64,000 bases of DNA, taken from the NCBI GenBank assembly GCA_964361095.1, contig CAYHZA010000003.1:31773-95772 (forward strand), given 5' to 3'. This stretch comes from an uncultured Candidatus Saccharibacteria bacterium (GTDB lineage: Bacteria; Patescibacteriota; Minisyncoccia; UBA6257; 2-01-FULL-56-20). A program made the position numbers and the translations under genes. Shown piece by piece: positions 6,977-64,000 of this stretch. The first letter of the stretch is position 1. Each line of letters starts with the position of its first letter. The notes beneath the pieces were generated by a model that worked only from the letters and a program-made list of their open reading frames with translations, made no database searches and was not told the DNA's origin.

Positions 6977-7741
6977 TTATTTCGCCGGAGGCAAAAAAAT
7001 AAAGGTCATCTGCATATGGCTATTCAAGCCGAAGTCCCCGGGAATCGCTCCGTGCGCTACGCCGTCGCTCTGATACATAAGCGCGATAAGTGACACTGTT
7101 GTCTTTGTACTCAATTCGAGAGGAGTCGTACTTATCACAACCGAACCGTTACCACTCTTATCCGATTTGAATGAATTTTGCGAACCGTCGCCTGCGCCGC
7201 AAGGTTTATCGGAAACATTCACATTCGGAGGAAATGTAAGCCGCGAACACCAAAGGGTATATGTTGCATTCGGCACAAGCTTGGAAAACGAGAGTTTTAA
7301 TTCCGCGGTATTTCCCGAAACAATGTACGTCCCGCCTCCCGTTGCCGCGGACCACTGCTTCAGCGTCAAACCGAGAGACTTGCCTTTCGCGAATGGTCCT
7401 ACGGGATTCGTTCCTATCTTGAAGATATCATGCGGAACGGCGGTAGCTGCGACATAGAGCATCTTTGCCTGCGTCGTTGTTTTTTTCGCTTCGGCGCCCT
7501 CAATGCGGATCACCTTTGTCTTATCCGTAGGATGTTCAACAAAAACATCCTGTTCGGGAAGCCCCATCGCGATATAACCCAAAAACTTCACGTCGGTACT
7601 CAAAGCTTTCGCCTCTTTCCAAGAATTAACCGAAGATTCGTCGGTGAGTGAGGGACCCATACGTATAAGAGGAAAAAGAACCGCGGCAAGAACAGCCAAA
7701 GCGATAATGAAGATGATCAATACGATAGTTTTTTTATTCAT
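6977..7741 (-). CDS. hypothetical exported/membrane-anchored protein
   Basis: N-terminal hydrophobic helix (IVLIIFIIALAVLAAVLF) followed by a Gly/Ser/Thr-rich beta-type domain. Confidence 0.4.
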   Translation of the reverse strand: MNKKTIVLIIFIIALAVLAAVLFPLIRMGPSLTDESSVNSWKEAKALSTDVKFLGYIAMGLPEQDVFVEHPTDKTKVIRIEGAEAKKTTTQAKMLYVAATAVPHDIFKIGTNPVGPFAKGKSLGLTLKQWSAATGGGTYIVSGNTAELKLSFSKLVPNATYTLWCSRLTFPPNVNVSDKPCGAGDGSQNSFKSDKSGNGSVVISTTPLELSTKTTVSLIALMYQSDGVAHGAIPGDFGLNSHMQMTFIFLPPAK

Positions 7742-17532: not shown

Positions 17533-17597
17533 GCCAGTGTTGTCTAAATATTCAAGCTACCGTGTGGCGAAGAACATTGAGCCACAACAGTGAGCAT

Positions 17598-17745
17598 CCA
17601 GCCCCACTTTTGAGAGAGGCGGTAAATCGACGTTTTAATTATAATGGCAGAAATTTTCATTGTTTTTATTTATCTACGATAACATAAAAAAGTGGGGCTG
17701 GGTAAGGTTTTGTTCATAAATTTCTTCAAAATTTATACAAAGCCC
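17598..17745. repeat. MITE-like inverted-repeat element, copy A
   Basis: CCAGCCCCACTTTT ... AAAAAGTGGGGCTGGGTAAGGTTTTGTTCATAAATTTCTTCAAAATTTATACAAAGCCC. A near-identical copy lies at 20136-20281. It sits in the rplQ-rpoA spacer. Confidence 0.55.
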
Positions 17746-20092: not shown

Positions 20093-20135
20093 GCCAATTT
20101 TATACGATGCGAAGCGAGTAGCTAAAATTGAGCAC

Positions 20136-20390
20136 CCAGCTCCACTTTTTATGAAGGCGCTCGAACGACCCTTTTGTGGTAATGGCGGAAATTTTCATGG
20201 TGTTATTGGATGGTGTCATGGTAAAAAGTGGGGCTGGGTAAGGTTTTGTTCATAAATTTCTTCGAAATTTATACAAAGCCCAGCTCCAGTTTTATACAGA
20301 TATAGTTTTCAGGATATATTACCATAAGGATGTAAGTTAGATGTTTCTTATATTCAACTCTTTTTGCAAAACTGGGGCTGGGCAAAGCCC
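20136..20390. repeat. MITE-like element copy B (20136-20281) plus a nested or partial second copy (20282-20390)
   Basis: Shares more than 90% of a roughly 60-nt terminal block with copy A. The second sub-element has CAGCTCCAGTTTT / AAAACTGGGGCTGG inverted termini. It fills the rpsM-rpmJ spacer. Confidence 0.55.
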
Positions 20391-23862: not shown

Positions 23863-25455
23863 TTAATTCGGCAGAATAGCCACCCCGAGAATCGAAGAAA
23901 TTGCTGAACCGCTGAATGTCCACGACATTTGTGTCGTGGGGCCATTTTTCGTACTTCCACCACCCTTCGCGTTTGTGGCGGCATCAGACCACCGCGACAC
24001 TTGCCCGGAACCCGGTGATACCACGGAAACGCCCGAAACAACTACATCTTGTACGACCTCACCTGCATTGCTGGTAATACTAAGTATTAGCGAGGTGCCA
24101 CCACCGGTTGAAGCCTGAAAAAGTCCCCCAAGCGGAGTGGTTTGATTAACTCCACTCCATGACGTGGCGCCAGTCACAATAGACACAGCAGTCGACGCGG
24201 TAAATACAATATCATTCGTACCAACAACGGGGTTCACGAGATACCACAGCTCAACGCGATGATTGCCCGCATCATTTCTAAAACCTTTCTTCGTAAGAGG
24301 AACCCCTCCATACGTCATTGAGGTCACGGGGCTCCCAACGCTCGACATTGAAACCCCAACCATCAGAAGACGGTTGGTCCCATTTGAAATAGTATGTTGC
24401 CACGTAAGACTGGTCGCATCTATTGTTGTTTTCGCCGAGCTCGTCGTATCAAATACTATCCCGGCAACCGGAGCATTCACGGTAAATCCGCCGGGAAGCA
24501 TGCCGGGCGATCCTCCGGAATTTGTCACCACCACATCCCACGCGCCGGTTGCAGATCCCGCAAGGTTAAAGGACCCTCCGTTTATTGTCGTACCGTTCGC
24601 GACAGTAAACCCGGAACCGATAATATCAGTCTGGCCGGTTTTCGAAAGCTTTACACTCGCTCCGGATTGGAAATTAGAGCCGGTAATGGTCGTGATACTT
24701 ACCGTTCCGTTATTTGTTCCGATTGATGGAATAATCGTTGAAACAGTCGGTGTAGGAATGGTCACCGTAGACGACGGCCGCAACGATGTCGTAACAATCG
24801 TGAGATCAGTACCCGTTTCAAACACTCCGTCAAGAATACCTCCATCTTGTTTTACGATATCAATATATTTCTGAGATTCCATAGCGGCGGTAAATTCAAA
24901 AGAACCGCAGGTATAGGTGTAATAGAATCCTGACGCAAAGGTGTTCACCGGATCAAGCGGCAACTTCGTAAGAGGAGGCTGGACATTAATAGCCGATTGC
25001 CTTAGATCAACGGGAATCCAACCGGTACTGTCAACGTTCGCAGCCACGCTTTGAGGAACACGTACGATAGTCCACCCCGAAGGCGGTGTCGGTGTTGTCT
25101 CGCCATTATCCGAAGGAACCGAAACGAATAATCTTTTATTTGCCGGCACGTCATTGATACACGAATCAGTCTCGGCGCCAGTCGGAGGAGTGGGGTAACT
25201 TGGACCATCCAAATCCAAAGTGCCCCCTTGCGCCGTAATAATCGAGAATGCCCTTGCAAGCGTCTTTACGTCATACAGGCGGGTGCTGTCCCGCGCCTGG
25301 CGCAAAAGCTCCGCGGGATTCAAGGTCAAGATCACTACAACGGAGAGCACCGCGACAATGCCGATGACCACCAAAAGCTCGATCAACGTGAACCCTTTCA
25401 TATTTTTCTTAAAAAAGTTTTGGCTGATAGATTTTTTCTTTTTCATGTTTTTCAT
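23863..25455 (-). CDS. type IV pilin-like protein with a large C-terminal domain
   Basis: Prepilin leader and cleavage motif KG|FTLIELLVVIGIVAVLSVVVIL. The probable start is the internal MKGFTL near 25401. Confidence 0.7.
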   Translation of the reverse strand: MKNMKKKKSISQNFFKKNMKGFTLIELLVVIGIVAVLSVVVILTLNPAELLRQARDSTRLYDVKTLARAFSIITAQGGTLDLDGPSYPTPPTGAETDSCINDVPANKRLFVSVPSDNGETTPTPPSGWTIVRVPQSVAANVDSTGWIPVDLRQSAINVQPPLTKLPLDPVNTFASGFYYTYTCGSFEFTAAMESQKYIDIVKQDGGILDGVFETGTDLTIVTTSLRPSSTVTIPTPTVSTIIPSIGTNNGTVSITTITGSNFQSGASVKLSKTGQTDIIGSGFTVANGTTINGGSFNLAGSATGAWDVVVTNSGGSPGMLPGGFTVNAPVAGIVFDTTSSAKTTIDATSLTWQHTISNGTNRLLMVGVSMSSVGSPVTSMTYGGVPLTKKGFRNDAGNHRVELWYLVNPVVGTNDIVFTASTAVSIVTGATSWSGVNQTTPLGGLFQASTGGGTSLILSITSNAGEVVQDVVVSGVSVVSPGSGQVSRWSDAATNAKGGGSTKNGPTTQMSWTFSGSAISSILGVAILPN

Positions 25456-25460
25456 AAGGA

Positions 25461-26816
25461 TTACTTCGCTGCGTTATAAATCGCGGATACTTCGGCGGCG
25501 GTAAGGGCTCGGTTATATACGCGGAGCTCGTCAAATGTCGCATTGACTACCGGATTACCTCCGGAGATACGGTCTCCGATACTATACCCAAGGTTTGTTT
25601 CGGGAACTATGCTCGTTATTGATGTCGTACTAAAAACCAATCCGCCGTTATTGTACAAACTCGTCGTCTGACCATTCCAAACGACTGCAACATGCGTCCA
25701 TAACGGGGAAACAGCACCGAGCCCCGTTAGGGCTTTGTAGGAAGCAGAGTTGTGATAATACTGGACATTATCCGAATCGGTTCCAAACGCAAATCCGTGC
25801 TCGTTAAACGGAAGTGTCGAATAGTAATCACCGTAAATAAATCCGGCGGCAGAAGTTCGAACAACCCATAAACTCATACTTATGGAACTCGACGCGTAAA
25901 GAGATGGGCTGTTTGCAATTTGCGCGGCACACGACACTCCGCAACTCGCACCATTGAACCTCGCCGCGCCGCCGACTTTTCCCGTAACCCATGTCCACGT
26001 TGGCGTAGCCAAGAAAGCATGGTTGCTGTTCCCCGAAGTATCGGCAATCGTACTTCCGCTTCCGTCGTCAAACTTCCAATAACCGACCAGTCCCGTCGCT
26101 TGCGTCCATAAATTCACGCTGTTTCCGACTTCAAAACGGGTGGGATCGGTGCCCCCGTCGCCTGCCGAAGATAACTTAATAAATTTTGACGACTCAAGAA
26201 GCGCCGAGGCGATCACAAAACGCCCGTCGGCAACATAGCTGTAATAATATCCCGAAGTGGTGCTGTTTATCGGATCGATCGGTAGCGCGGAAAGCGGCGA
26301 TCCAGCCGAAAAGGTTTTGAAATTTATCGGCACCCACCCCGTACCATTAACACTCTGCAACGTTGAGGACGCGGTGCAGTGATATTTCCATCCCGGAGGA
26401 AGTGTCGAGGGTGACGGACCAACCCCAGTGCAATCGGTCCCCGCGGTCGTCGTGGCATTCGGATCAGCAATCGAAATATACACCGTCTGACTCAAGCCTA
26501 ACGACTGCTCCACACCATAGATTCCCAAGGCCTTACCCAAACTATTCATCTGCGCGAGGCGTTTCGTATCGCGCGTTTGGCGAAAAAGTTCAACGGGATC
26601 CAACACTAAAATAATGGCTACGGAGAGTACCGCGATAACGCCGATTACAATTAAAAGCTCAATCAGGGTAAACCCCGTTAGAGAATGATGATTTTCTTTA
26701 TTTTTCCGAAAGTATCGGGGTCTATCCCAGTACTCCAACTTCTCTAACGGGGTAAATCCCCTTTTTCGATTCCCCATGCCTCGCAAAGACAAAAATTGCA
26801 TAAATAGTATATTCAT
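25461..26816 (-). CDS. type IV pilin-like protein with a C-terminal LamG/ConA-like lectin domain
   Basis: TG|FTLIELLIVIGVIAVL prepilin motif. The C-terminus (RFNGASCGVSCAA...LWTHVAVVWNGQTTSLYNNG...FDELRVYNRALTAAEVSAIY) is a LamG signature. Confidence 0.7.
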   Translation of the reverse strand: MNILFMQFLSLRGMGNRKRGFTPLEKLEYWDRPRYFRKNKENHHSLTGFTLIELLIVIGVIAVLSVAIILVLDPVELFRQTRDTKRLAQMNSLGKALGIYGVEQSLGLSQTVYISIADPNATTTAGTDCTGVGPSPSTLPPGWKYHCTASSTLQSVNGTGWVPINFKTFSAGSPLSALPIDPINSTTSGYYYSYVADGRFVIASALLESSKFIKLSSAGDGGTDPTRFEVGNSVNLWTQATGLVGYWKFDDGSGSTIADTSGNSNHAFLATPTWTWVTGKVGGAARFNGASCGVSCAAQIANSPSLYASSSISMSLWVVRTSAAGFIYGDYYSTLPFNEHGFAFGTDSDNVQYYHNSASYKALTGLGAVSPLWTHVAVVWNGQTTSLYNNGGLVFSTTSITSIVPETNLGYSIGDRISGGNPVVNATFDELRVYNRALTAAEVSAIYNAAK

Positions 26817-28718: not shown

Positions 28719-29918
28719 TTATTCTAGTTTAAAATCGGCATTTATTAAAGCTTCTATTGCCTTTTTTACTTTAAACCCCTTGCAATGCCCGAGAACACCG
28801 AAATACGACTGTACCGATTGCTCGAATGAATCTTTAGTAAGCGCACCGCGCACTATTTCTAATTTACTCTCTCTTATTTTCTTTAAAATTCTTCTTCTGG
28901 TTCTTGTACGCACGATTCGATAGTGCGGCAATATAACGTAACCAAGAAAATCTATGCCCTGCGAATATTTCCGCAGAAAAATCTTTTGCGGATGCAGCGC
29001 GAGCAAAAGCGAATCCCGAAGAAAATCGGTCAATGGCGATACAAGCCGTTTAAGATGGCTCTTGTCGTGGCTTACAATAATAAAATCATCGCAATAACGA
29101 ACATAGTGTTTTTCCTTGAGTGTGTGTTTCACAAATTGATCTAATTCATTCAGATAAATATTGGCAAAAAGCTGGCTCGTTACATTTCCGAGCGGCAGTC
29201 CTTTGTCGTCTGACTTCTCAAAACTTTTTATAATGCGGCGAATAAGCCATCGTGCGCCGTCATCGTCAACCTTTCTATCTATCAATTCTAAAAGAATATT
29301 ATGATCAATGGAGTCAAAAAACTTTCTAACGTCGCATTTCAAAGCAAAACAATGCGCCGCATAATTTTTGCTCACCTTTCGTAGAAACTGCTCGAGCCGT
29401 GTAACTCCCCGATGGGTACCCTTATGCATGCGACAGGAATACGAATCAAAAATAAAACTTCTATCAAAAACAGGGTATAATACTCTAAATATTGCCTGGT
29501 GCACCACTCGGTCGCGCACTACGGCCTTATGAATATGGCGCAGTTTCGGATCGCGGACATAAAATGCGTGATAGGAGTGGTGCGTGTACGTCCGATTCCG
29601 TAACTCTTCGTGAAGTTGGAAAAGATTGTCTTCCAAGTTAAATTCAAACTCTTGGACATCGGTTTTCCTTCTCTTTCCGCGCCGAAATTCGCGCCACGCC
29701 GAAAATAAATTTTCGAGACATATAATTTTTTCAAAAATAGTATTTCCATGAACCCCCCCCCGACGGAATAACGGTGCCGCTTGTGCATAAGATTGGTGAA
29801 TTGTATAAAACGCTTTATCTCTTAGGTAAAAAAATTCCGAAACGCGATCACTTCGGCATTCATCTGAAAATCGAACAGCTTTGTCTCGATATACTCGAGC
29901 TTTCAATCTCGGCGGCAT
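28719..29918 (-). CDS. diversity-generating retroelement (DGR) reverse transcriptase
   Basis: RT motifs including LPLGNVTSQLFANIYLNELD (the DGR-specific [IL]GxxxSQ variant of QGxxxSP) and VRYCDDFIIV (YxDD). The N-terminus has LENLFSAWREFRRGKRRK. Confidence 0.8.
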   Translation of the reverse strand: MPPRLKARVYRDKAVRFSDECRSDRVSEFFYLRDKAFYTIHQSYAQAAPLFRRGGVHGNTIFEKIICLENLFSAWREFRRGKRRKTDVQEFEFNLEDNLFQLHEELRNRTYTHHSYHAFYVRDPKLRHIHKAVVRDRVVHQAIFRVLYPVFDRSFIFDSYSCRMHKGTHRGVTRLEQFLRKVSKNYAAHCFALKCDVRKFFDSIDHNILLELIDRKVDDDGARWLIRRIIKSFEKSDDKGLPLGNVTSQLFANIYLNELDQFVKHTLKEKHYVRYCDDFIIVSHDKSHLKRLVSPLTDFLRDSLLLALHPQKIFLRKYSQGIDFLGYVILPHYRIVRTRTRRRILKKIRESKLEIVRGALTKDSFEQSVQSYFGVLGHCKGFKVKKAIEALINADFKLE

Positions 29919-30118
29919 TAGAAATCAAGGAAAAGAAATCGTTTTTGCTCTCTAACGCGCGGATCAAAAATGAGGTACTCAAGCGACTTCTGCGCAACGC
30001 CCGAGAACTTTCAATTATCCATGAAAGACAATATATCAATATTGAAAAAGAATTGATAGAAATATCAAAAATGATAAACGGCTGGCTGAAGTTTTTAAAT
30101 AACAAAGAGGGTGCATGA
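29774..30118 (+). CDS. avd: Avd-like four-helix-bundle accessory protein (23S rRNA IVS protein family)
   Basis: IGELYKTLYLLGKKIPKRDHFGIHLKIEQLCLDILELSISAA matches the FPKEExFGLxSQxRRAAVSIxSNIAEG pattern. GTG start. It is on the opposite strand to the RT and TR and overlaps the RT 5' end. Confidence 0.6.
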   Translation: MPLVHKIGELYKTLYLLGKKIPKRDHFGIHLKIEQLCLDILELSISAALEIKEKKSFLLSNARIKNEVLKRLLRNARELSIIHERQYINIEKELIEISKMINGWLKFLNNKEGA

Positions 30119-30136
30119 CCCTCTTTGGCGAAACTT

Positions 30137-30252
30137 CTGCACGGACGCGGATATTGTCGTTCCGATTGTCGGGATTGTACCAGTTGACGTTCAGGTTGTC
30201 GTCGTTCCAGTTCACGTTCGGCACGTTGTCATTCGGATTCCGCGAACCTGTG
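30137..30252 (-). repeat. DGR template repeat (TR)
   Basis: 116 bp homologous to 30540-30655. In minus-strand sense it is AAC/AAT-rich (...NVNWNDDNLNVNWYNPDNRNDNIRVRAE). 25 of 27 mismatches to the VR fall on TR adenines. Confidence 0.75.
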
Positions 30253-30478
30253 TATTATCTGATTCCATCCGAATCACTGGCATTCTTTGGAAAAAATGCC
30301 TGCGTGTCCGATCTTGATCGGCATCGTTTTGGGGCATCGCACTTAGCAAACCCCCACTAGAACCAGATAAGCAGTTCCCTTGAAATATTGGCAAACCGTT
30401 ATCAAGCACTGAGTTGTATATATGCCGACCGGTTGTATTAGCCAATTTTATTTTAACCTAAAGTGTGAAGTAAAAAAA

Positions 30479-30500
30479 TGGGTTCGGCATAGCCGAACCC
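30479..30500 (-). terminator. perfect hairpin downstream of the VR (target-gene terminator and DGR-associated stem-loop)
   Basis: GGGTTCGGC ata GCCGAACCC flanked by A/T runs, about 40 nt 3' of the VR. Confidence 0.55.
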
Positions 30501-30528
30501 AAAGGTTTCAAGTTGCAAGATACAAGCG

Positions 30529-31263
30529 TTAGGGAACCACTGGACGGACGCGGATACCGTCGCTCCGACTGTCGGGATCGCCCCAGCCGACGCTCAGGTC
30601 GCCGCCGCGCCAGTCCACGCCCGGCACGCAGGCACCCGGACCCCGCGAACCCGTGCAGAGCGTGATGTTCTTCAGGTCGAGGTGTTTCCCCGTCTCCATG
30701 AAGTACTTCAGTTCATAGAGGAGCCGCTCGGGGAGTGTGATGCCTACGACACCCCGTGCTTTCGTGTTGTTTGCCGAGAGGTTCTTCAGCTCCTCGTCGG
30801 CCTCGACACGGTCGCGCACCCAGATTGCGTAGTCGTGGTCCGGCTCGCGGTCGGATTTGATCTGGTCCAAGTCCTCCGTGTACCGCCACGCCGGGAAGAG
30901 CTCTTTGCACTTTGCGAAGAGCCGGTTCGGGGTCATGCCCGCGAGAACCACGATGAGGCGGTCGAAGCCGTCCTTGTGCGTTGGAATCGCAAGACTGTCG
31001 ACGAGGCTCGAGAAGTCCTTCTCGATGCCGAAGATGTCCCGGTAGAACTCCTGCCAGGGATCCAAGAGAAGGAGCTCGGGCACGGGATAAAAGCCACTCA
31101 CTTCACGGAGAATCTCCGAGACTTTCCTGGCCCACACGCGCTTCCTTCGAACGAGTTTCTGCATCTCGGCGAAACTCATGTCGGGAATCGCTTGGATCAA
31201 AGCCGCACTCACTTCCTTGAACTGGCCTTGTGTTGCCGGACGGACAGTTTCATGCCTATGCAT
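30529..31263 (-). CDS. DGR target (variable) protein, GC-rich, with the VR at its 3' end
   Basis: 244 aa. The C-terminus ...LCTGSRGPGACVPGVDWRGGDLSVGWGDPDSRSDGIRVRPVVP is encoded by the VR (30540-30655). AAGGAGG RBS. GC content is far above neighbouring genes. Confidence 0.7.
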   Translation of the reverse strand: MHRHETVRPATQGQFKEVSAALIQAIPDMSFAEMQKLVRRKRVWARKVSEILREVSGFYPVPELLLLDPWQEFYRDIFGIEKDFSSLVDSLAIPTHKDGFDRLIVVLAGMTPNRLFAKCKELFPAWRYTEDLDQIKSDREPDHDYAIWVRDRVEADEELKNLSANNTKARGVVGITLPERLLYELKYFMETGKHLDLKNITLCTGSRGPGACVPGVDWRGGDLSVGWGDPDSRSDGIRVRPVVP

Positions 31264-58079: not shown

Positions 58080-58232
58080 TTTTGATACTCAAAAAAATAG
58101 CTCTGTCTAACGGTTGATTTCCCGCAGGAGAGCAAACTTGCCACTAGGCGAGCACGCCAGATAACGTATTTATCTTATCACAAAAAAAGCCACTTTGAAA
58201 TGGCCTTTTTCCATTGAAAATAGCGGGTAAAA

Positions 58233-61200
58233 TTACCGCACCACACATCTGAACCCTGTCTTCTCGTCAGCCGTACCCACAGGAGTAATGCGCAAAGCCA
58301 AACGTCCTGATTTTTCTTCACCTTGGAAACTACCACCCCGCAAGTATCCATAAGGACCACCTCCCGTATCAACCGTAAGATAGTCGGCATGGAGTGTTGG
58401 GCTTACGGCGGTCGTAAGGGGTAAACCTGTTGTTTCATCCACGGTACCGATATAATCCGATGAAACAAATGGGAGAGAATTTATAGTTCCCAAAGTCCAT
58501 TCGGGAAGATTCCCGATCATGTCATAAGCACCAAAGAGAGAGCGGCAGAGAGATGCGGTACCGCTCTTGATGAAACCCCCGTTGAACCAAATAGTAGGGG
58601 TACTTGTACTTGTCTGAAACGTAGCACCAAGAGGAGAGCGGCCAAATCCTGTTTCTGGATCATTCCATGCCATACAGGGTTCGTTGCGGTAACCGGGATC
58701 ACTGTCATAGGGGTCAGGTGTGCCGATAGAAGCTAAATACCACTCGGCTTCAGTGGGAAGACGCTTGCCGTTTGTGACACAAGCCGCTTGTGCCTGTGCT
58801 TGAAAACGATTGATTGAGGGATTCTGGTTTGGGCGGGAAACTGCTCGTCCTGAAGGAAGAATGCTCGCTTCATACTTATCAACACAGAACGCGCCCGGAG
58901 AAGGCACCCAAACCATTCCTTCGGGACAAAGACCGCCAGAGTCGGGAATGATGGTTAATAAACTTCCTACTTCATAGAGACCGTTGTCCCCGCCGTCGTT
59001 CAAGGGAGGAGTTTGTTTCACGAGTGTGGGAGCAGAAGGTGCGACAACGGCGGCTCCGGTACAACTTCCCGTCGTAATCTGACAACCTGCATTACACGTA
59101 AGATTGCCTCCGGAAAAACCAAAGTTGCTACACGAAGCAGTTCCGAAGTCCGCACTATCACACTGTTCACTGACTTGGTTCTTCACGCCATCGCCGCATG
59201 AAGGACCGCCTCCCAAAGAAAGCGTCATCGCGTTCGAGGTTCCCGACTGCGAAACATTGGGAGGTGTCGCTCCGTCTTCGGCAGTCACATAGTAATAGTA
59301 GGTCGTGTTCGAAGTGAGCGCGGTATCGGTGGCGTTGCGAGGGGAAGTAATAGAAACTGTCGCGAATTGAAGGAAGGGACCGAGAGTTGATGTGGAGCGA
59401 AAAACTTTATAGCGTTGGACTCCGGTTGTTGGAAAACCAAGAAGATCATGACTTGGATCCCATGAGATAGATATGGTGGAAGTAGTAATGTTGGTCAACA
59501 AGGGATCACCGGGATTAGAAGGTGGGGTAACATCATTATTCTGGACGGTAACCGAAGACAAAGCCGCAGCAGTATTCCCCGCCGCATCCCGCGCGACTGC
59601 GGAAATCGTATACGTGCCATCAGAAGCAGCCGTTGAATCCCATGTTGGAAGTTCATAAGGAAAGACGGTATCCTCCACTCCGAGATTCGCGCCGTCAAGT
59701 TTGAACTGGACTCCGAAGACTCCTACGAGATCCGAGGCGCTCGCGGAAACAGTAACGGCGTTCCCGGAAACAACAGCGCCAGGCGACGGGAGGATCATGG
59801 AGACCGAGGGTGGAGTGGTGTCCACCACACAACTTCCCGTTCCAATATCGGCAACAACCGCCGCGATCGCCGTGTCGTCAACGGCGTCGCGCGGAAGAGC
59901 GCCCACGGTATCGAGGAGCGGATTGCATCCCAAAGGCTTACGAAGTTCCGCCGTAGTGTTTTCCGTAATTGCGGGAGCGGAACCTATCGGAGAAGCGGCT
60001 GTTCCTATCGTGTTGATATTCGCCTGGGGTGCATCATTTCCATTTACATAAACGGAACCAACACCGGTATCCATCCATAACGATTGACTCGGACTTAATG
60101 TAGAAGAATAAACATTTTTTACCAAATTTCCGCGCGCTTGATAACGCAATCGCGTTCCAAATCCCCCGCTTCCCCAGCTATGTACAATATTATTTCTAAA
60201 ATCAAATGTCGGCTTATTAAGCGTCACTCCCGTTGTGTCCCCCAAGATTGAAGGGTTGCGTTCAAAATTCTTCGTAAGTACATTGTGATGCACCGTCACG
60301 CGATCGGGAATATCTCCGGTTCCAGGACCGGAAATATTCATAGCTTCGGGACTCGGATCAGTGATACCCTTCGCGTCATAAATAATGGAATTCGATATAG
60401 TAACATCACTCACCGATCCATACGTTACTATGGAATCATCACTATGCTGAGAAAGAGACACGTGGTCAATCCAAATATTGCCGCATGCCGCCGTCCCGGC
60501 TTGCGCTCCGCAATACACTTGTATGCCGGGAGCATTTTCGATAGGAGGACCGGTGAGATTGCGTACACGCAGGTGCCGAACTATCACATTATTTGATCCA
60601 CGAATTTCAAACTCAGGAGTGCCTGACGTTATGCTATTGCCGGATCCGTTTATGGTAATCCCAGGTGAAGGTGCGGTTGAGCCATCAATAGTCACGTTAC
60701 TCTTGCCTGATAAACTTAATTTCCCTGAAGTAAGATTGATTGTCCCGCCTGTCGAGAAATAAATACGCGCGCCGCTTGCCCCGACACCGCTCAATGCCGA
60801 TCGCAAACTTCCCGCGCCGGAATCATTGAGATTAGTGACACAAATAATCGACTGACCCGCTCCTCCCGTTGTTCCCGAACCGAAACCTTCCGGATTTCCC
60901 GAAGCCGGCGTATTGCCGCACGAACTCGCCGCTGGCGTTCCCGATGCCTGCGCGGAATTGCCCGAAGTATTTAATGCCGCATCATAAGCGTTCACGACAT
61001 AATAATATGTAGTCCCCGTTGTAAGACCTGTGTTTGAATAATTACTAAGCGTCGTGCTCGCGATTCCGGTATAGGGACCGCCCGAGACCGTGGAACGATA
61101 GACACTGTAACCGGTAACGCCAACGACATCGGTACTGTCGGGCCAATCGAGATCGAGTTGTGTTCCGGATATGGGAGTAACCGAGATAGTTCCGGGAATG

Positions 61201-64000
61201 GAAGGCGGCGTGGTGTCGCCACCGCCACCATTATTCACCGTTACGTTCACTGCGACCGATGTCTGCATGTTAGCGTTCGGCGATGCATCAGTCGCAACCG
61301 CAGTTAGGACATATGGTCCGTCCGATACGAGAGTAGTATTCCAACTCACGCCATAGGGAGATGTCGTATCAACGCCGAGACTCGTAAGCCCTCGGAAAAA
61401 TTCCACTTGCTGGATGCCACTTGCATCCGATGCGGTCGCGGAAACGGGAACGCTTGCCCCCAAAACAGTCGCTCCACTCGCCGGAGCAGTTACGGAAACA
61501 GTCGGAGCGATAGTATCACCACCCGCTCCGGCGGAATACGTAATGGCGAGGGATGGATGAAACGAAACACTTGGCTCCTCGCTTGATCCCATTGCTTTAT
61601 TGCTATCAGAAAGCGCTTCGCTGTTATTTTTCAAAAGCAATCCTTGGTTTGTCCACGTGCCTCCAAACCAATTTTGCACCGCAGTCGTAATATCTAACGT
61701 TGCCGTAACGGGGCTCGCGGCGGAGCAAGTCCCAATACCCGCCGTTGAGGCCAGTGCGGTTGTCGCGGCATCGGTAGAAGCACTCGCTCCTGCGGAACCC
61801 CACGAAGAACCGGTGTCAAAAAGATTCCACGTCGCCGTATTTTCCACCCATGTGCGAAGCGAACGATAAGCCGAAACAACATAACTCGTCGAACCGTTTG
61901 AAGAAAGACATTTGAGCGTAAGTTGTGCTTGAGTAATCGTATCCCCAGAGAAAATTCCGGCATTTGAAAAATCAAAACGAATCAATCCTCGCAACCTTCT
62001 CCCTGATCCGCCAAAATTCCCAATACGCATCTTATCGTCAGTCCCATAATTATTACCAACACTTTCTTCTCTCATTTCTGTGTCATACGTTCCCGTATAC
62101 CCATCTCGACCCTGCTGAAGCGTTACGGTTGCCGACCCCAAAGTTGCCAAAGGAACAATATTGCTGTCCGCGCTCTCATTTCCGGAATAATCGCGCGCGC
62201 TTACCACATACTCATAACTCGTATTCAAAAATGCCGTAATATCGGTACTCGATGGAGAAGCGCTCATCGTACTTGACGCAAGGACGACAATAGAGCTAAA
62301 CGCTCCCGCGCCAGTTCGACGCTTGAGGACATATTCCCTAAGACCGCTCGCCACATCCGTACTAACGGTCCACACAAGCCGAGGCTTGCCTAAAATCAAT
62401 GATCCCGAAAGGGTCGGTATCGAAGGCGGAGTGACATCAAATATTCCAACATTAAGAGTTGCCGTATCGCTTCCGGTACGTCCGGTATTGTCGGTTGCGG
62501 TGAGTGTGAGCATATACGTCCCCTGCGTCGAACAGTTCACGGTTGCCGTTCTCGTGGTTTGCCCGGAACTATAACCTCCTGGAGTTAAGGTGCAACTGCC
62601 CGGAGGAATACTCCATACCATATTACTTACACTTCCATCGTCTTGGGCAATGCCGTTAAAAACAGCATTTGCACCTGTCTGGCCATTTTGATCAACTCCT
62701 GCGTTCGAAACCGGATCCTCATTAACAGAAGCACCCCCAACGCTAAATCGGTAATAGTGATCGCTCCAAGCGCCATTGAGCGTAGGAAAGCTGGCAAGTT
62801 CACTTTTAAATCTCACTCGTGCGTAATAATTGCCGGACGGCAATGTTACGGTAGATTGACAAGTCGTTGCGCTGCTGGAGTTGGGAGGACCTGAATCGTA
62901 GAGAGGAATACCTATCCCTTGGCTATCGAATGTATTCGTATTATCTATTTGACATTGAAATCCTGGTTGGGTTGAAAAACCGAACGGAGAATCTATATTA
63001 ATATTGGCCAGATTATTATTCCCCCAATCAAGTGTCGGTTGCGAACTTGCCGTATTTTCGCGAAGTTCAAAGTCATATGGCCACGACCCTGCGCCAACCT
63101 CATATGCTCCAATATCGGATCTCGAACCACCCCCTAGAGGAATGGAAAGATCTGGGGCTCCGGCATTAATAAGACGGCTGCCTGCGTTGGGTACATAGGT
63201 GGTCGTATTAAAATCGATGGTATTCGTTTGATAGTTAGTTGCTCCCGGCGTTGATGTTGCAACCGTTACACAAGATTGACCACCATATGCCGTTGAATTG
63301 TAAAAAGCGTTATATTCAATCCGATAGTTTACTGGGCAGCTCGTACTGACGATGCCTTCACTGTTAGCCTGGTTAAATCCTACAAAAAGATTATTGCGGA
63401 CACTGGCATATCGAGTGTATGAGTCAAAACGGATTCCTTCCCCCTCATCTGGGGCTCCCGTGTAATCAAAGACATTATTTTCTATGATTGCCGACGGAGG
63501 AGGCTTGCCAGCGTCCGTAGCACGTATCCCTAAAAATTTCCTCGTTCCCGGAGCCCACATCTGAGGAACCTGGAGAACATTGTAGCGGAAAATACTTCCC
63601 CCGGAATTGTAAAATTGAACGCACCCCTCATCGGATTGGCAGGTCATATTGGTAATTTTGTTAAACTCAACTGTTGTCCCCGTTCCGAATCTGCCGAAAG
63701 CTAGTACGTCTTTTGCGGTAATATTTCTTACGACATTATTAGCCCCGAGCGCAACGACAACACATCCTTGCCCCCTCGTACCTCCATTCAAATCATTGTC
63801 AATTACTATATCCTCAATAAGCGTACGATTGTCTCCAAGATAAGCGCTTCCTTCCCAATTTCCAGCCGTAATAACGAATGCAGTACAAGCTAATGACGTA
63901 GGGGGAAAATTGATCGAATGAACTTCAATATCTCGTATAACAAGTCGAGCCGTATACCCGTTATATGACGCATGAGCTCCCCCAAAAATTCCAAATTGTG
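58233..64000 (-). CDS. giant multidomain surface protein (over 1,920 aa, 5' partial) with beta-helix, FN3, Ig-like and Cys-rich regions and a C-terminal FGE/C-type-lectin domain of DGR-target type
   Basis: The frame stays open on the minus strand beyond 63791 to the window end. Pectate-lyase-type repeats (NNVFDYTG...VRNNLFVGFNQ). FN3 (TTPPSIPGTISVTP...YSVYRS...TTYYYVVNAYD). The C-terminus has RLPTEAEWYLAS...YLRGGSFQGEEKSGRLALRITPVGTADEKTGFRCVVR. Confidence 0.8.
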   Translation of the reverse strand, partial: QFGIFGGAHASYNGYTARLVIRDIEVHSINFPPTSLACTAFVITAGNWEGSAYLGDNRTLIEDIVIDNDLNGGTRGQGCVVVALGANNVVRNITAKDVLAFGRFGTGTTVEFNKITNMTCQSDEGCVQFYNSGGSIFRYNVLQVPQMWAPGTRKFLGIRATDAGKPPPSAIIENNVFDYTGAPDEGEGIRFDSYTRYASVRNNLFVGFNQANSEGIVSTSCPVNYRIEYNAFYNSTAYGGQSCVTVATSTPGATNYQTNTIDFNTTTYVPNAGSRLINAGAPDLSIPLGGGSRSDIGAYEVGAGSWPYDFELRENTASSQPTLDWGNNNLANINIDSPFGFSTQPGFQCQIDNTNTFDSQGIGIPLYDSGPPNSSSATTCQSTVTLPSGNYYARVRFKSELASFPTLNGAWSDHYYRFSVGGASVNEDPVSNAGVDQNGQTGANAVFNGIAQDDGSVSNMVWSIPPGSCTLTPGGYSSGQTTRTATVNCSTQGTYMLTLTATDNTGRTGSDTATLNVGIFDVTPPSIPTLSGSLILGKPRLVWTVSTDVASGLREYVLKRRTGAGAFSSIVVLASSTMSASPSSTDITAFLNTSYEYVVSARDYSGNESADSNIVPLATLGSATVTLQQGRDGYTGTYDTEMREESVGNNYGTDDKMRIGNFGGSGRRLRGLIRFDFSNAGIFSGDTITQAQLTLKCLSSNGSTSYVVSAYRSLRTWVENTATWNLFDTGSSWGSAGASASTDAATTALASTAGIGTCSAASPVTATLDITTAVQNWFGGTWTNQGLLLKNNSEALSDSNKAMGSSEEPSVSFHPSLAITYSAGAGGDTIAPTVSVTAPASGATVLGASVPVSATASDASGIQQVEFFRGLTSLGVDTTSPYGVSWNTTLVSDGPYVLTAVATDASPNANMQTSVAVNVTVNNGGGGDTTPPSIPGTISVTPISGTQLDLDWPDSTDVVGVTGYSVYRSTVSGGPYTGIASTTLSNYSNTGLTTGTTYYYVVNAYDAALNTSGNSAQASGTPAASSCGNTPASGNPEGFGSGTTGGAGQSIICVTNLNDSGAGSLRSALSGVGASGARIYFSTGGTINLTSGKLSLSGKSNVTIDGSTAPSPGITINGSGNSITSGTPEFEIRGSNNVIVRHLRVRNLTGPPIENAPGIQVYCGAQAGTAACGNIWIDHVSLSQHSDDSIVTYGSVSDVTISNSIIYDAKGITDPSPEAMNISGPGTGDIPDRVTVHHNVLTKNFERNPSILGDTTGVTLNKPTFDFRNNIVHSWGSGGFGTRLRYQARGNLVKNVYSSTLSPSQSLWMDTGVGSVYVNGNDAPQANINTIGTAASPIGSAPAITENTTAELRKPLGCNPLLDTVGALPRDAVDDTAIAAVVADIGTGSCVVDTTPPSVSMILPSPGAVVSGNAVTVSASASDLVGVFGVQFKLDGANLGVEDTVFPYELPTWDSTAASDGTYTISAVARDAAGNTAAALSSVTVQNNDVTPPSNPGDPLLTNITTSTISISWDPSHDLLGFPTTGVQRYKVFRSTSTLGPFLQFATVSITSPRNATDTALTSNTTYYYYVTAEDGATPPNVSQSGTSNAMTLSLGGGPSCGDGVKNQVSEQCDSADFGTASCSNFGFSGGNLTCNAGCQITTGSCTGAAVVAPSAPTLVKQTPPLNDGGDNGLYEVGSLLTIIPDSGGLCPEGMVWVPSPGAFCVDKYEASILPSGRAVSRPNQNPSINRFQAQAQAACVTNGKRLPTEAEWYLASIGTPDPYDSDPGYRNEPCMAWNDPETGFGRSPLGATFQTSTSTPTIWFNGGFIKSGTASLCRSLFGAYDMIGNLPEWTLGTINSLPFVSSDYIGTVDETTGLPLTTAVSPTLHADYLTVDTGGGPYGYLRGGSFQGEEKSGRLALRITPVGTADEKTGFRCVVR

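Follow-up and report, generated by a model that had tools for sequence, protein, structure and literature searches.

C-terminal FGE/CLec tails are often flagged as candidate targets in surveys of DGRs. The nearest relatives of the C-terminal module characterized here are pilin-like FGE proteins of Paceibacteria, ~450-490 aa in length, which match it with 43-47% identity at 86-91% query cover and combine N_methyl with FGE-sulfatase (P0019, P0003 and P0005). These proteins are demonstrably DGR-diversified targets. At one locus (L004), RT and bAvd lie immediately downstream of the P0019 gene, whose VR is matched by a TR at ~7285-7385 with 10 A mismatches and no non-A mismatch per 60 nt. A second contig (L009) shows the same gene order (target, RT, bAvd) and ends just past bAvd. 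When allele pairs of the pilin-FGE proteins are compared, 0-8 differences occur in the 408 residues outside the last 45 and 9-14 inside them.

We analyzed a giant gene whose product ends in a related domain and which lies in a 64-kb window (the whole stretch of DNA that was analyzed) carrying a DGR of its own. The giant protein has in common with the Paceibacteria family a ~45-aa linker (NDGGDNGLYE.GS.LT..PDSGGLCP.GMV) and an end of the form ...LRGG.[WF]...GR.AL...P...GFRC..R, but the two differ in most other respects. The pilin-FGE proteins have a prepilin N-terminus and a length of ~480 aa, whereas the giant protein has a signal/anchor, a multi-domain stalk and 2,077 aa, and the prepilin N-terminal methylation motif (N_methyl, PF07963) had no match on its full sequence. 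A Cys-containing loop of the family (TKPDGT.CSSNCP) is missing from the giant protein. Moreover, the pilin-FGE genes are accompanied by an adjacent RT-bAvd-TR and vary between alleles in the VR only, in contrast to the giant gene, which has no TR within ~73 kb and a normal adenine content. In a phylogeny, its module falls on a long branch that is sister to the pilin-FGE clade as a whole rather than nested within it. The reading that we prefer, with a probability of roughly 0.75, is that the tail is a paralogue of DGR targets that serves as a fixed ligand-binding domain, carried on a probably secreted stalk and not currently diversified.

The giant gene and its C-terminal module

The C-terminus quoted in the first-pass annotation was confirmed by translation to be encoded by a minus-strand ORF ending at 58233 (Table 1). 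This ORF (58233..63791 in the ORF list) is open up to the window edge, and translation of 58233-63998 yields 1,921 residues with the end ...RLPTEAEWYLAS...YLRGGSFQGEEKSGRLALRITPVGTADEKTGFRCVVR*. The length of >1,920 aa given earlier holds for the part inside the window, but not as a full figure: the complete gene occupies L006:3614-9847 on the source contig, encodes 2,077 aa and starts at the equivalent of window position 64466, past the window edge. The NCBI record of the protein (MEK7193372.1, 'Ig-like domain-containing protein') belongs to a Patescibacteria MAG from groundwater. The protein is present in two assemblies, a pair that is 100% identical over all 2,077 aa and carries no information on variation, and a search with its N-terminal 700 aa as query returned the giant protein itself as the sole match.

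Table 1. Features of the giant gene and of the DGR in the same window (window coordinates)
Feature	Position	Strand	Basis or remark
Giant gene, 3' part (5.77 kb)	58233..64000	-	ORF list, translation; whole gene 2,077 codons
Cys-rich linker (…PSCGDGVKNQVSEQCDSADFGTASCSNFGFSGGNLTCNAGCQITTGSCTG…), last fn3/Ig block to FGE module	59055..59213 (approximate)	-	Read from translation
C-terminal module: linker PPLNDGGDNGLYEVGSLLTIIPDSGGLCPEGMVWVP plus FGE/CLec domain, residues ~1820-2077	58236..59009	-	Homologues, AF2, Foldseek
Pfam FGE-sulfatase (PF03781) match, residues 1891-2075	58242..58796	-	HMM
Last 38 codons (GYLRGGSFQGEEKSGRLALRITPVGTADEKTGFRCVVR), counterpart of relatives' VR; no VR signature	58236..58349	-	Alignment with relatives' VRs
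DGR reverse transcriptase ORF	28719-29918	-	Pfam RVT_1, E 1.9e-21; NCBI product 305 aa
bAvd accessory gene	29774-30118	+	Pfam bAvd, E 3.8e-13
TR of the window's DGR	30132..30252	-	Direct repeat with 30535-30655, 76% identity; all differences at TR adenines
VR1, 3' end of 244-aa target gene (30529-31263, minus strand)	30535..30655	-	Sole target of the local TR

Since the N-terminus contains a hydrophobic signal/anchor (MNSLSARVKLSLLIPVGTFMALAGLIFFAPQTQA, read from L006), the giant protein is probably secreted or surface-bound. In agreement with the multi-domain secreted or surface protein proposed in the first-pass annotation, the Pfam domains downstream of this segment are of extracellular type and comprise PKD, a DNRLRE/Disaggregatase repeat, two Big_7 and two fn3 domains ahead of FGE-sulfatase, with an additional match to a pectate-lyase-like beta-helix that falls below the curated cut-offs. 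No family match was obtained for the Cys-rich linker, which may resemble CxxGDG…ExCD repeats. The TALE-repeat proteins that dominated a first PDB sequence search (E ~1e-10) were found to be an artefact of summation, in which a single 37-aa linker segment had contributed 14-17 very weak matches with individual E values >100.

The tail is an FGE-subtype C-type-lectin fold domain, as had been proposed from the sequence. When the domain HMM suggested at that time was run on the C-terminal 299 aa, PF03781 matched with 46.8 bits (E 3.9e-12; gathering score, 23.3 bits) over profile positions 99-254 of 255, corresponding to the last ~190 aa, and the match to the whole protein (E 4e-10) was likewise above the gathering score. 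An AF2 model of the C-terminal module reached a pLDDT of 83, with values >90 over most of the domain, and a pTM of 0.81. With this model, the best PDB fold matches in Foldseek were Mtd (1yu0, E 1e-6), TaqVP (5vf4), EgtB and FGE, at a probability of 1.00 but with TM-scores of just 0.35-0.5.

A sulfatase-modifying-enzyme active site, named in the first-pass annotation as the mark of an enzyme rather than of a variable ligand-binding domain, was also looked for. The segment GGSYMC(336)HRSYC(341) of human FGE, whose catalytic positions are pinned by the mutant PDB entries 2aft (C336S) and 2afy (C341S), aligns to GGSFQGEEKSG of the giant protein. The tail lacks the catalytic Cys pair that characterizes formylglycine-generating enzymes and has no Cys between RGGSF and GFRC; the sole Cys of its last 38 residues is the one in GFRC. 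To judge from these residues, the domain is apparently not an enzyme. Its most likely role, that of a fixed ligand-binding tip, is inferred from fold and architecture.

Template search and codon composition of the tail

The DGR cassette of the window (28719-30252) lies 28 kb from the tail of the giant protein. In ~73 kb of contig, the only target of its TR was VR1, which served as the positive control of our adenine-tolerant scan with 0 non-A mismatches. The tail DNA showed no similarity to this TR when aligned, with a best ungapped identity of 0.43, in keeping with the lack of nucleotide homology reported earlier (for a TR placed at 30137-30252, here 30132-30252). No adenine-tolerant TR match for the tail was found in the 64-kb window or in 8.9 kb of flanks (4.8 kb on the start side and 4.1 kb past the end), which together make up about 73 kb of a contig of 100-110 kb. 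Within the window, the scan gave 10 non-A mismatches per 60 nt, compared with 8-11 in shuffled controls, and a degenerate 'VR base or A' pattern of the tail matched the tail itself only. The window is therefore without a cognate TR, as the first-pass annotation had stated, and the repeat of 58236-58350 with A-specific mismatches that it had proposed to seek elsewhere in the genome was likewise not found over the ~73 kb. On the 3' side of the giant gene's stop codon, a simple terminator scan found nothing; an A/T-rich hairpin followed by a T-run was seen by eye at ~58186-58215 and is not a GC-rich hairpin of the DGR type.

The tail and the VRs of P0019 and P0003 can be aligned column by column, a correspondence that is also found in non-DGR FGE proteins. 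Any adenine in a VR must have a mutable counterpart in the TR. The codons of the tail were compared with those of confirmed VRs. Third-position A occurs in 9 of the 38 codons of the tail vs. 4 of 114 in the confirmed VRs (Fisher p = 5.5e-4), the latter contributing 1/38, 2/38 and 1/38 singly and including VR1 of the window. The overall fraction of A is 0.22 in the tail vs. 0.08-0.13 in the confirmed VRs. Across the giant gene, third-position A amounts to 0.20, and both the adenine content and the third-position A of the tail equal the gene-wide values. Additionally, the tail contains three stop-capable codons (AAA, AAG, and AGA), whereas the confirmed VRs contain none, and its AGA is the codon of the family-invariant Arg of GFRC. 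We used the third-position-A statistic in preference to a strict rule by which AAY could never give rise to K, E or Q, because the L004 TR contains a single AAA codon and K/E are seen in a small number of alleles in the diversified family. For the same reason, an AAY-only design is not absolute in the pilin-FGE clade and the codon argument is a statistical one. What the tail lacks is mutagenesis-compatible coding as a whole, i.e., adenine-poor sequence with AAY-derived variable codons, an adenine-free scaffold and no stop-capable codons.

These observations bear on the description of the tail as a canonical DGR-target tail that fits the DGR variable-protein consensus, which we do not uphold. 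The RGGS...GFRC motif is present at the aligned positions of human FGE and is general to the FGE family rather than specific to DGRs, and the adenine-depleted, stop-free codons of a DGR target are missing from the tail.

Origin and role of the tail

Three options had been offered for the tail in the first-pass annotation, namely a target whose TR lies elsewhere in the genome, a VR fixed after the loss of its TR, or a paralogue of DGR targets. The last is favored by the DGR-diversified relatives and the sister-branch position, while the codon signature speaks against the first and the lack of any remaining trace against the second. According to the paralogue reading, the module would be a sister lineage of the Paceibacteria pilin-FGE family, in which the C-terminal 40 residues are DGR-diversified, and would form a germline-encoded tip carried by an extended stalk built from beta-helix (pectate-lyase-like), PKD, DNRLRE, Ig, and FN3 domains. 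The ligand of this tip is probably a carbohydrate or a surface molecule of a host or partner cell. The tail would not be diversified at present, having neither a template within ~73 kb nor a codon design compatible with mutagenesis.

It is conceivable, if unlikely, that the tail is a fossil VR, whose diversified ancestor was fused to the giant protein, lost its TR, froze, and then drifted. Such a history would agree with the sister relationship to a clade that shows widespread diversification, with the family-specific linker and domain module held in common, and with the retained position of the loops that are variable in relatives. However, adenine content and third-position A at gene-wide values leave no residual signature, and the scaffold has been altered relative to the diversified clade by W to F in GGxW, F to L in GRFAL and a 2-residue deletion. 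Conserved tails like that of the giant protein (e.g., NKEKAG...GFRC) are also present in the P0031 group, more distantly related FGE proteins of ~280 aa, and no RT was found within 10 kb of the P0031 group locus; an ancestry that was never diversified is therefore equally parsimonious. We are similarly doubtful of a broader scenario in which the pilin-family linker and FGE module moved onto a lineage-specific giant adhesin, there to be diversified still in trans by an unseen TR or to undergo the 'freeze' of a hypervariable site. If true, this would be a natural case of DGR-evolved specificity that was fixed and redeployed on another scaffold.

A considerably poorer prospect is active diversification of the tail as a second DGR target, from a TR elsewhere in the genome that is used by the RT of the window or by another RT. 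Remote targets are within the reach of DGRs, and the fold and extreme C-terminal position of the tail match DGR variable regions, its closest relatives are DGR targets, and a working-looking DGR is present in the same genome. In addition, the relative P0005 has no RT within 10 kb but an adenine-depleted, VR-like tail with third-position A in 2/38 codons, which suggests that remote targeting may occur in the family. Against this stand the about 73 kb of contig without a TR and the restriction of the local TR to VR1. We disfavor a remote TR because the tail has no adenine-depleted, stop-free codon signature: its third-position A sets it apart from the confirmed VRs, and a cognate TR would need adenines in stop-mutable AAA, AAG and AGA codons, including that of the invariant Arg of GFRC. 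Finally, a catalytic domain of the FGE/EgtB type, engaged in formylglycine generation or C-S bond formation rather than binding, is scarcely credible in spite of the Pfam FGE-sulfatase family match, profile matches to FGE enzymes at E 1e-16 and the NCBI label of the relatives ('SUMF1/EgtB/PvdO family nonheme iron enzyme'), as equivalents of Cys336/Cys341 are missing, the giant protein showed no DinB-type iron-binding N-domain, as known from EgtB/OvsA, alongside its FGE domain, and the domain is placed at the tip of an extracellular stalk.

If the tail is a fixed paralogue, the adhesin repertoire of this episymbiotic-type Patescibacteria genome gains one more large CLec-tipped surface protein. 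The tail also shows that RGGS...GFRC is not in itself diagnostic of DGR targets, and that static paralogues and true VRs in the same genome can be told apart by third-position A, stop-capable codons and adenines in scaffold codons. Active diversification of the related Paceibacteria pilin-FGE family is documented here as well. Neither result changes the current understanding of DGRs.

Comparison with other FGE-fold proteins

Among described DGR targets, Mtd of Bordetella phage (1YU0) and TaqVP of Thermus aquaticus (5VF4) have a C-terminal fold of the CLec/FGE type like that of the tail and are among its best fold matches, while TvpA of Treponema denticola (2Y3C), with an FGE-type CLec fold, was matched by the family profile at E 3e-7. 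Sequence identity to these DGR variable proteins is just 12-17%, at TM-scores of 0.35-0.5. All three have a cognate TR, whereas none was seen for the giant protein in ~73 kb. Human SUMF1/FGE and bacterial FGEs have the Pfam family, the fold and the motifs RLPTE(A/E)EW, GN(V/L).EW and GGS[YWF]...GFRC in common with the tail. The human protein, however, is a stand-alone enzyme with Cys336/Cys341, in contrast to the giant protein, whose domain is without this pair and is borne on an extracellular adhesin-like stalk. A further likeness is to the type IX secretion proteins PorK/GldK (9OTS, 9MZU), which the family profile matched at E ~1e-9 over profile positions 149-302, the tail included. As lipoprotein ring components of a secretion machine, PorK/GldK are unlike the giant protein in architecture, but they employ the FGE fold as a static structural or binding module that is both non-enzymatic and non-diversified.

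The giant protein and its C-terminal domain

The minus-strand translation of 58233-63998 gives 1,921 residues ending in ...RLPTEAEWYLAS...YLRGGSFQGEEKSGRLALRITPVGTADEKTGFRCVVR*, as in the first-pass annotation, and on the source contig the full-length gene comprises 2,077 codons (L006:3614-9847; product MEK7193372.1). The N-terminus is hydrophobic and resembles a signal or anchor segment (MNSLSARVKLSLLIPVGTFMALAGLIFFAPQTQA). Domain matches comprise PKD, a DNRLRE/Disaggregatase repeat, two Big_7, two fn3 and a C-terminal FGE-sulfatase domain (PF03781); a pectate-lyase-like beta-helix matched under curated cut-offs. Since the PF03781 match exceeds its cut-off (46.8 vs. 23.3 bits, E 3.9e-12) and extends to profile position 254 of 255, it is real rather than a chance hit, bearing out the FGE-type C-terminal domain proposed from the sequence. 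An apparent TALE-repeat homology of the 37-aa linker NDGGDNGLYEVGSLLTIIPDSGGLCPEGMVWVPSPG (58899-59009; summed E ~1e-10 in PDB) was rejected as an artefact because only summation of repeats gave significance, each repeat match having E >100.

No relatives of the N-terminal 700 aa could be detected in the protein collection; the FGE fusion is therefore lineage-specific. A homology search with the last 299 aa returned 53 proteins, none giant. The giant protein itself was missing because its 90%-identity cluster (P0060) is represented by a 447-aa N-terminal fragment; that cluster also holds unrelated 38-43-aa peptides.

Diversified relatives and the DGR of the window

The best matches were Paceibacterota/Parcubacteria proteins of 450-490 aa that combine a prepilin N_methyl motif with an FGE-sulfatase domain at the C-terminus (identity 36-46%, with 57-91% query coverage; in the domain alignment, 43-47%). 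Similarity already begins in a linker specific to the family (NDGGDNGLYE.GS.LT..PDSGGLCP.GMV), ~45 residues N-terminal of the Pfam domain. DGR-diversified CLec proteins are well known in CPR bacteria, and these pilin-FGE relatives are true DGR targets. At one locus (L004) the gene for protein P0019 is followed by RT and bAvd genes, and a TR at ~7285-7385 matches its last ~110 nt with 10 mismatches per 60 nt, all of them at TR adenines; variable positions are represented in this TR by AAC or AAT and, in one case, AAA. A second locus (L009, protein P0003) has target, RT and bAvd in the same order, the TR position lying beyond the contig end. Allele pairs differ at 9-14 positions within the last 45 residues vs. 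0-8 of 408 residues elsewhere, and the family follows the pattern LRSG[x]W[xx]GA[x]AGRFAL[x]L[xx]APS[x]T[xxx]IGFRC. [quoted passage not shown]

A further relative, P0005 (L001-L003:10001-11467), has a VR-like tail depleted of adenines and no RT or TR within 10 kb on either side; it is probably targeted by a remote DGR or was orphaned recently. More distant FGE proteins of ~280 aa (P0030-P0041) have conserved tails (e.g., GGYWNNKEKAG...PSFAGTGVGFRC); at the one locus covered, that of P0031, the gene neighbourhood shows no RT within 10 kb. In a neighbour-joining tree of the FGE domain with the tail columns left out, the window's module forms a long branch, sister to the whole pilin-FGE clade and not nested within it. 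The module and the pilin-tip domains diversified by DGRs in related Paceibacteria have a common ancestor.

The window also contains a genuine DGR, 28 kb from the giant protein's tail. Its layout (28719-31263) is unusual, with target gene, TR and RT on the minus strand and bAvd on the plus strand. Neither Pfam nor NCBIfam matched the 244-aa target, whose VR1 encodes ...CTGSRGPGACVPGVDWRGGDLSVGWGDPDSRSDGIRVRPVVP. Several pilin-like genes lie near the cassette and, upstream of the window, at L007:3070-4256; even apart from the FGE-tailed giant, the organism's repertoire of pilin-tip lectin-type proteins is sizeable. Beyond the window end, the two complete tandem genes carry weak Lcl_C/DUF1566-type C-terminal domains (E 1e-7 and 7e-6, under cut-off), another fold family frequently used by DGRs. 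The window TR did not match them, and ENA and NCBI assemblies differ by one T/A substitution in each, near residue 101-106 and not C-terminal. Elsewhere, two direct repeat blocks appear to cover two minus-strand genes at their 5′ ends, together with the DNA upstream; these genes may be paralogues with a conserved leader or promoter.

Features in and near the window (window positions)
Feature	Position	Strand	Remarks
Direct repeat blocks	17586-17745; 20124-20281		2.5 kb apart; 81 nt at 74%, 59 nt at 98% identity
Pilin-like genes	23863-26816		N_methyl; one with Laminin_G_3
RT (ORF)	28719-29918	-	Pfam RVT_1; NCBI call shorter, 305 aa
bAvd gene	29774-30118	+	overlaps 5′ end of long RT ORF
TR	30132-30252	-	matches VR1 with 0 non-A mismatches
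VR1	30535-30655	-	3′ end of 244-aa target gene
Giant gene (ORF)	58233..63791	-	open as far as window edge
Tandem genes	about 64833-67352 (L006:728-3247)		414 and 421 aa, third truncated; divergent from giant gene

Template search and codon signature of the tail

Templates were sought with an adenine-tolerant scan, which disregards mismatches at adenines of the putative TR; in the positive control, VR1 paired with its TR, all 16-19 mismatches per 60 nt fell on A and 0 on non-A bases. For 58233-58600, the best candidate in the whole window had 10 non-A mismatches per 60 nt (shuffled tails, 8-11), and none was found for the tail in the 4.1 kb past the window end or the 4.8 kb before its start. 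A degenerate "VR base or A" pattern of the tail matched only the tail itself, the best ungapped identity to the window TR was 0.43, and VR1 was the only target of that TR within about 73 kb. The first-pass observation that no cognate TR is present here therefore holds.

Because every A in a VR must have an A as its counterpart in the TR, real TRs keep scaffold codons and third positions free of adenines. Third-position adenines (A3) were compared over the 38 terminal codons of each gene.

Third-position adenines in terminal codons
Gene	Status	A3
L004 (P0019)	confirmed VR	1/38
L009 (P0003)	VR by gene context and alignment to P0019	2/38
Window VR1	confirmed VR	1/38
P0005	no RT within 10 kb	2/38
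Giant protein tail	under test	9/38

The tail differs from the pooled L004, L009 and VR1 tails (4/114; Fisher p = 5.5e-4) and is indistinguishable from its own gene-wide A3 of 0.20; gene-wide values are 0.19 and 0.26 for the L009 and L004 pilin-FGE genes, and just 0.09 for the VR1 gene. Its overall A fraction is 0.22 vs. 0.08-0.13 in those three tails. Codons convertible to stops by adenine changes are absent from all four comparison tails; the giant protein's tail has AAA, AAG and AGA, the last encoding the Arg of GFRC, invariant in 46/46 aligned family members. At positions variable in relatives, half of its codons end in A or G (CAA, AAA, ACG, GAG, AAG), and its scaffold shows W to F, F to L and two deleted residues. 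This codon argument against a VR is statistical rather than absolute: one AAA occurs in the L004 TR, and K or E is present in a few diversified-family alleles.

Neither the scans across ~73 kb nor the codon signature gave evidence of present-day diversification, and we consider the tail a static paralogue with a probability of roughly 75%. That it is instead a fossil VR, a reading that could draw on its kinship with diversified domains, is less probable. Still less probable is an active target of a remote DGR template: such a template could lie beyond the scanned DNA, and P0005 suggests that the low-A signature may mark remote targets too, a signature the tail lacks.

Fold, proposed role and known counterparts

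An AF2 model of the last 269 aa (pLDDT 83; >90 across most of the domain) predicts a CLec/FGE fold. Foldseek against PDB retrieved Mtd (1yu0, E 1e-6), TaqVP (5vf4), EgtB/OvsA and FGE enzymes with similar scores (TM 0.35-0.5), and does not tell DGR proteins from enzymes. The tail of human FGE aligns to the family tail in the family profile; RGGS[WF]...R.A.R...P...GFRC, initially read as a DGR consensus, is thus a family-wide motif. Where human FGE has its catalytic cysteines, located by the mutant chains C336S (2aft) and C341S (2afy), the giant protein reads GGSFQGEEKSG with no Cys ahead of GFRC, and the domain is therefore very probably not a formylglycine-generating enzyme; the sulfatase-modifying active site that would have spoken against a ligand-binding domain is absent.

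The giant protein is most likely exported or anchored via its N-terminal hydrophobic segment. Its beta-helix, PKD, DNRLRE, Ig and FN3 domains, with the Cys-rich linker, would form a stalk whose distal tip carries a fixed CLec/FGE domain for ligand binding. The domains themselves were detected in the sequence; surface location and a binding role are inferred. FGE/CLec tails on large surface proteins are well known, and the giant protein represents a kind already known. The family profile also matches PorK/GldK, where a static, non-enzymatic use of the FGE fold is known.
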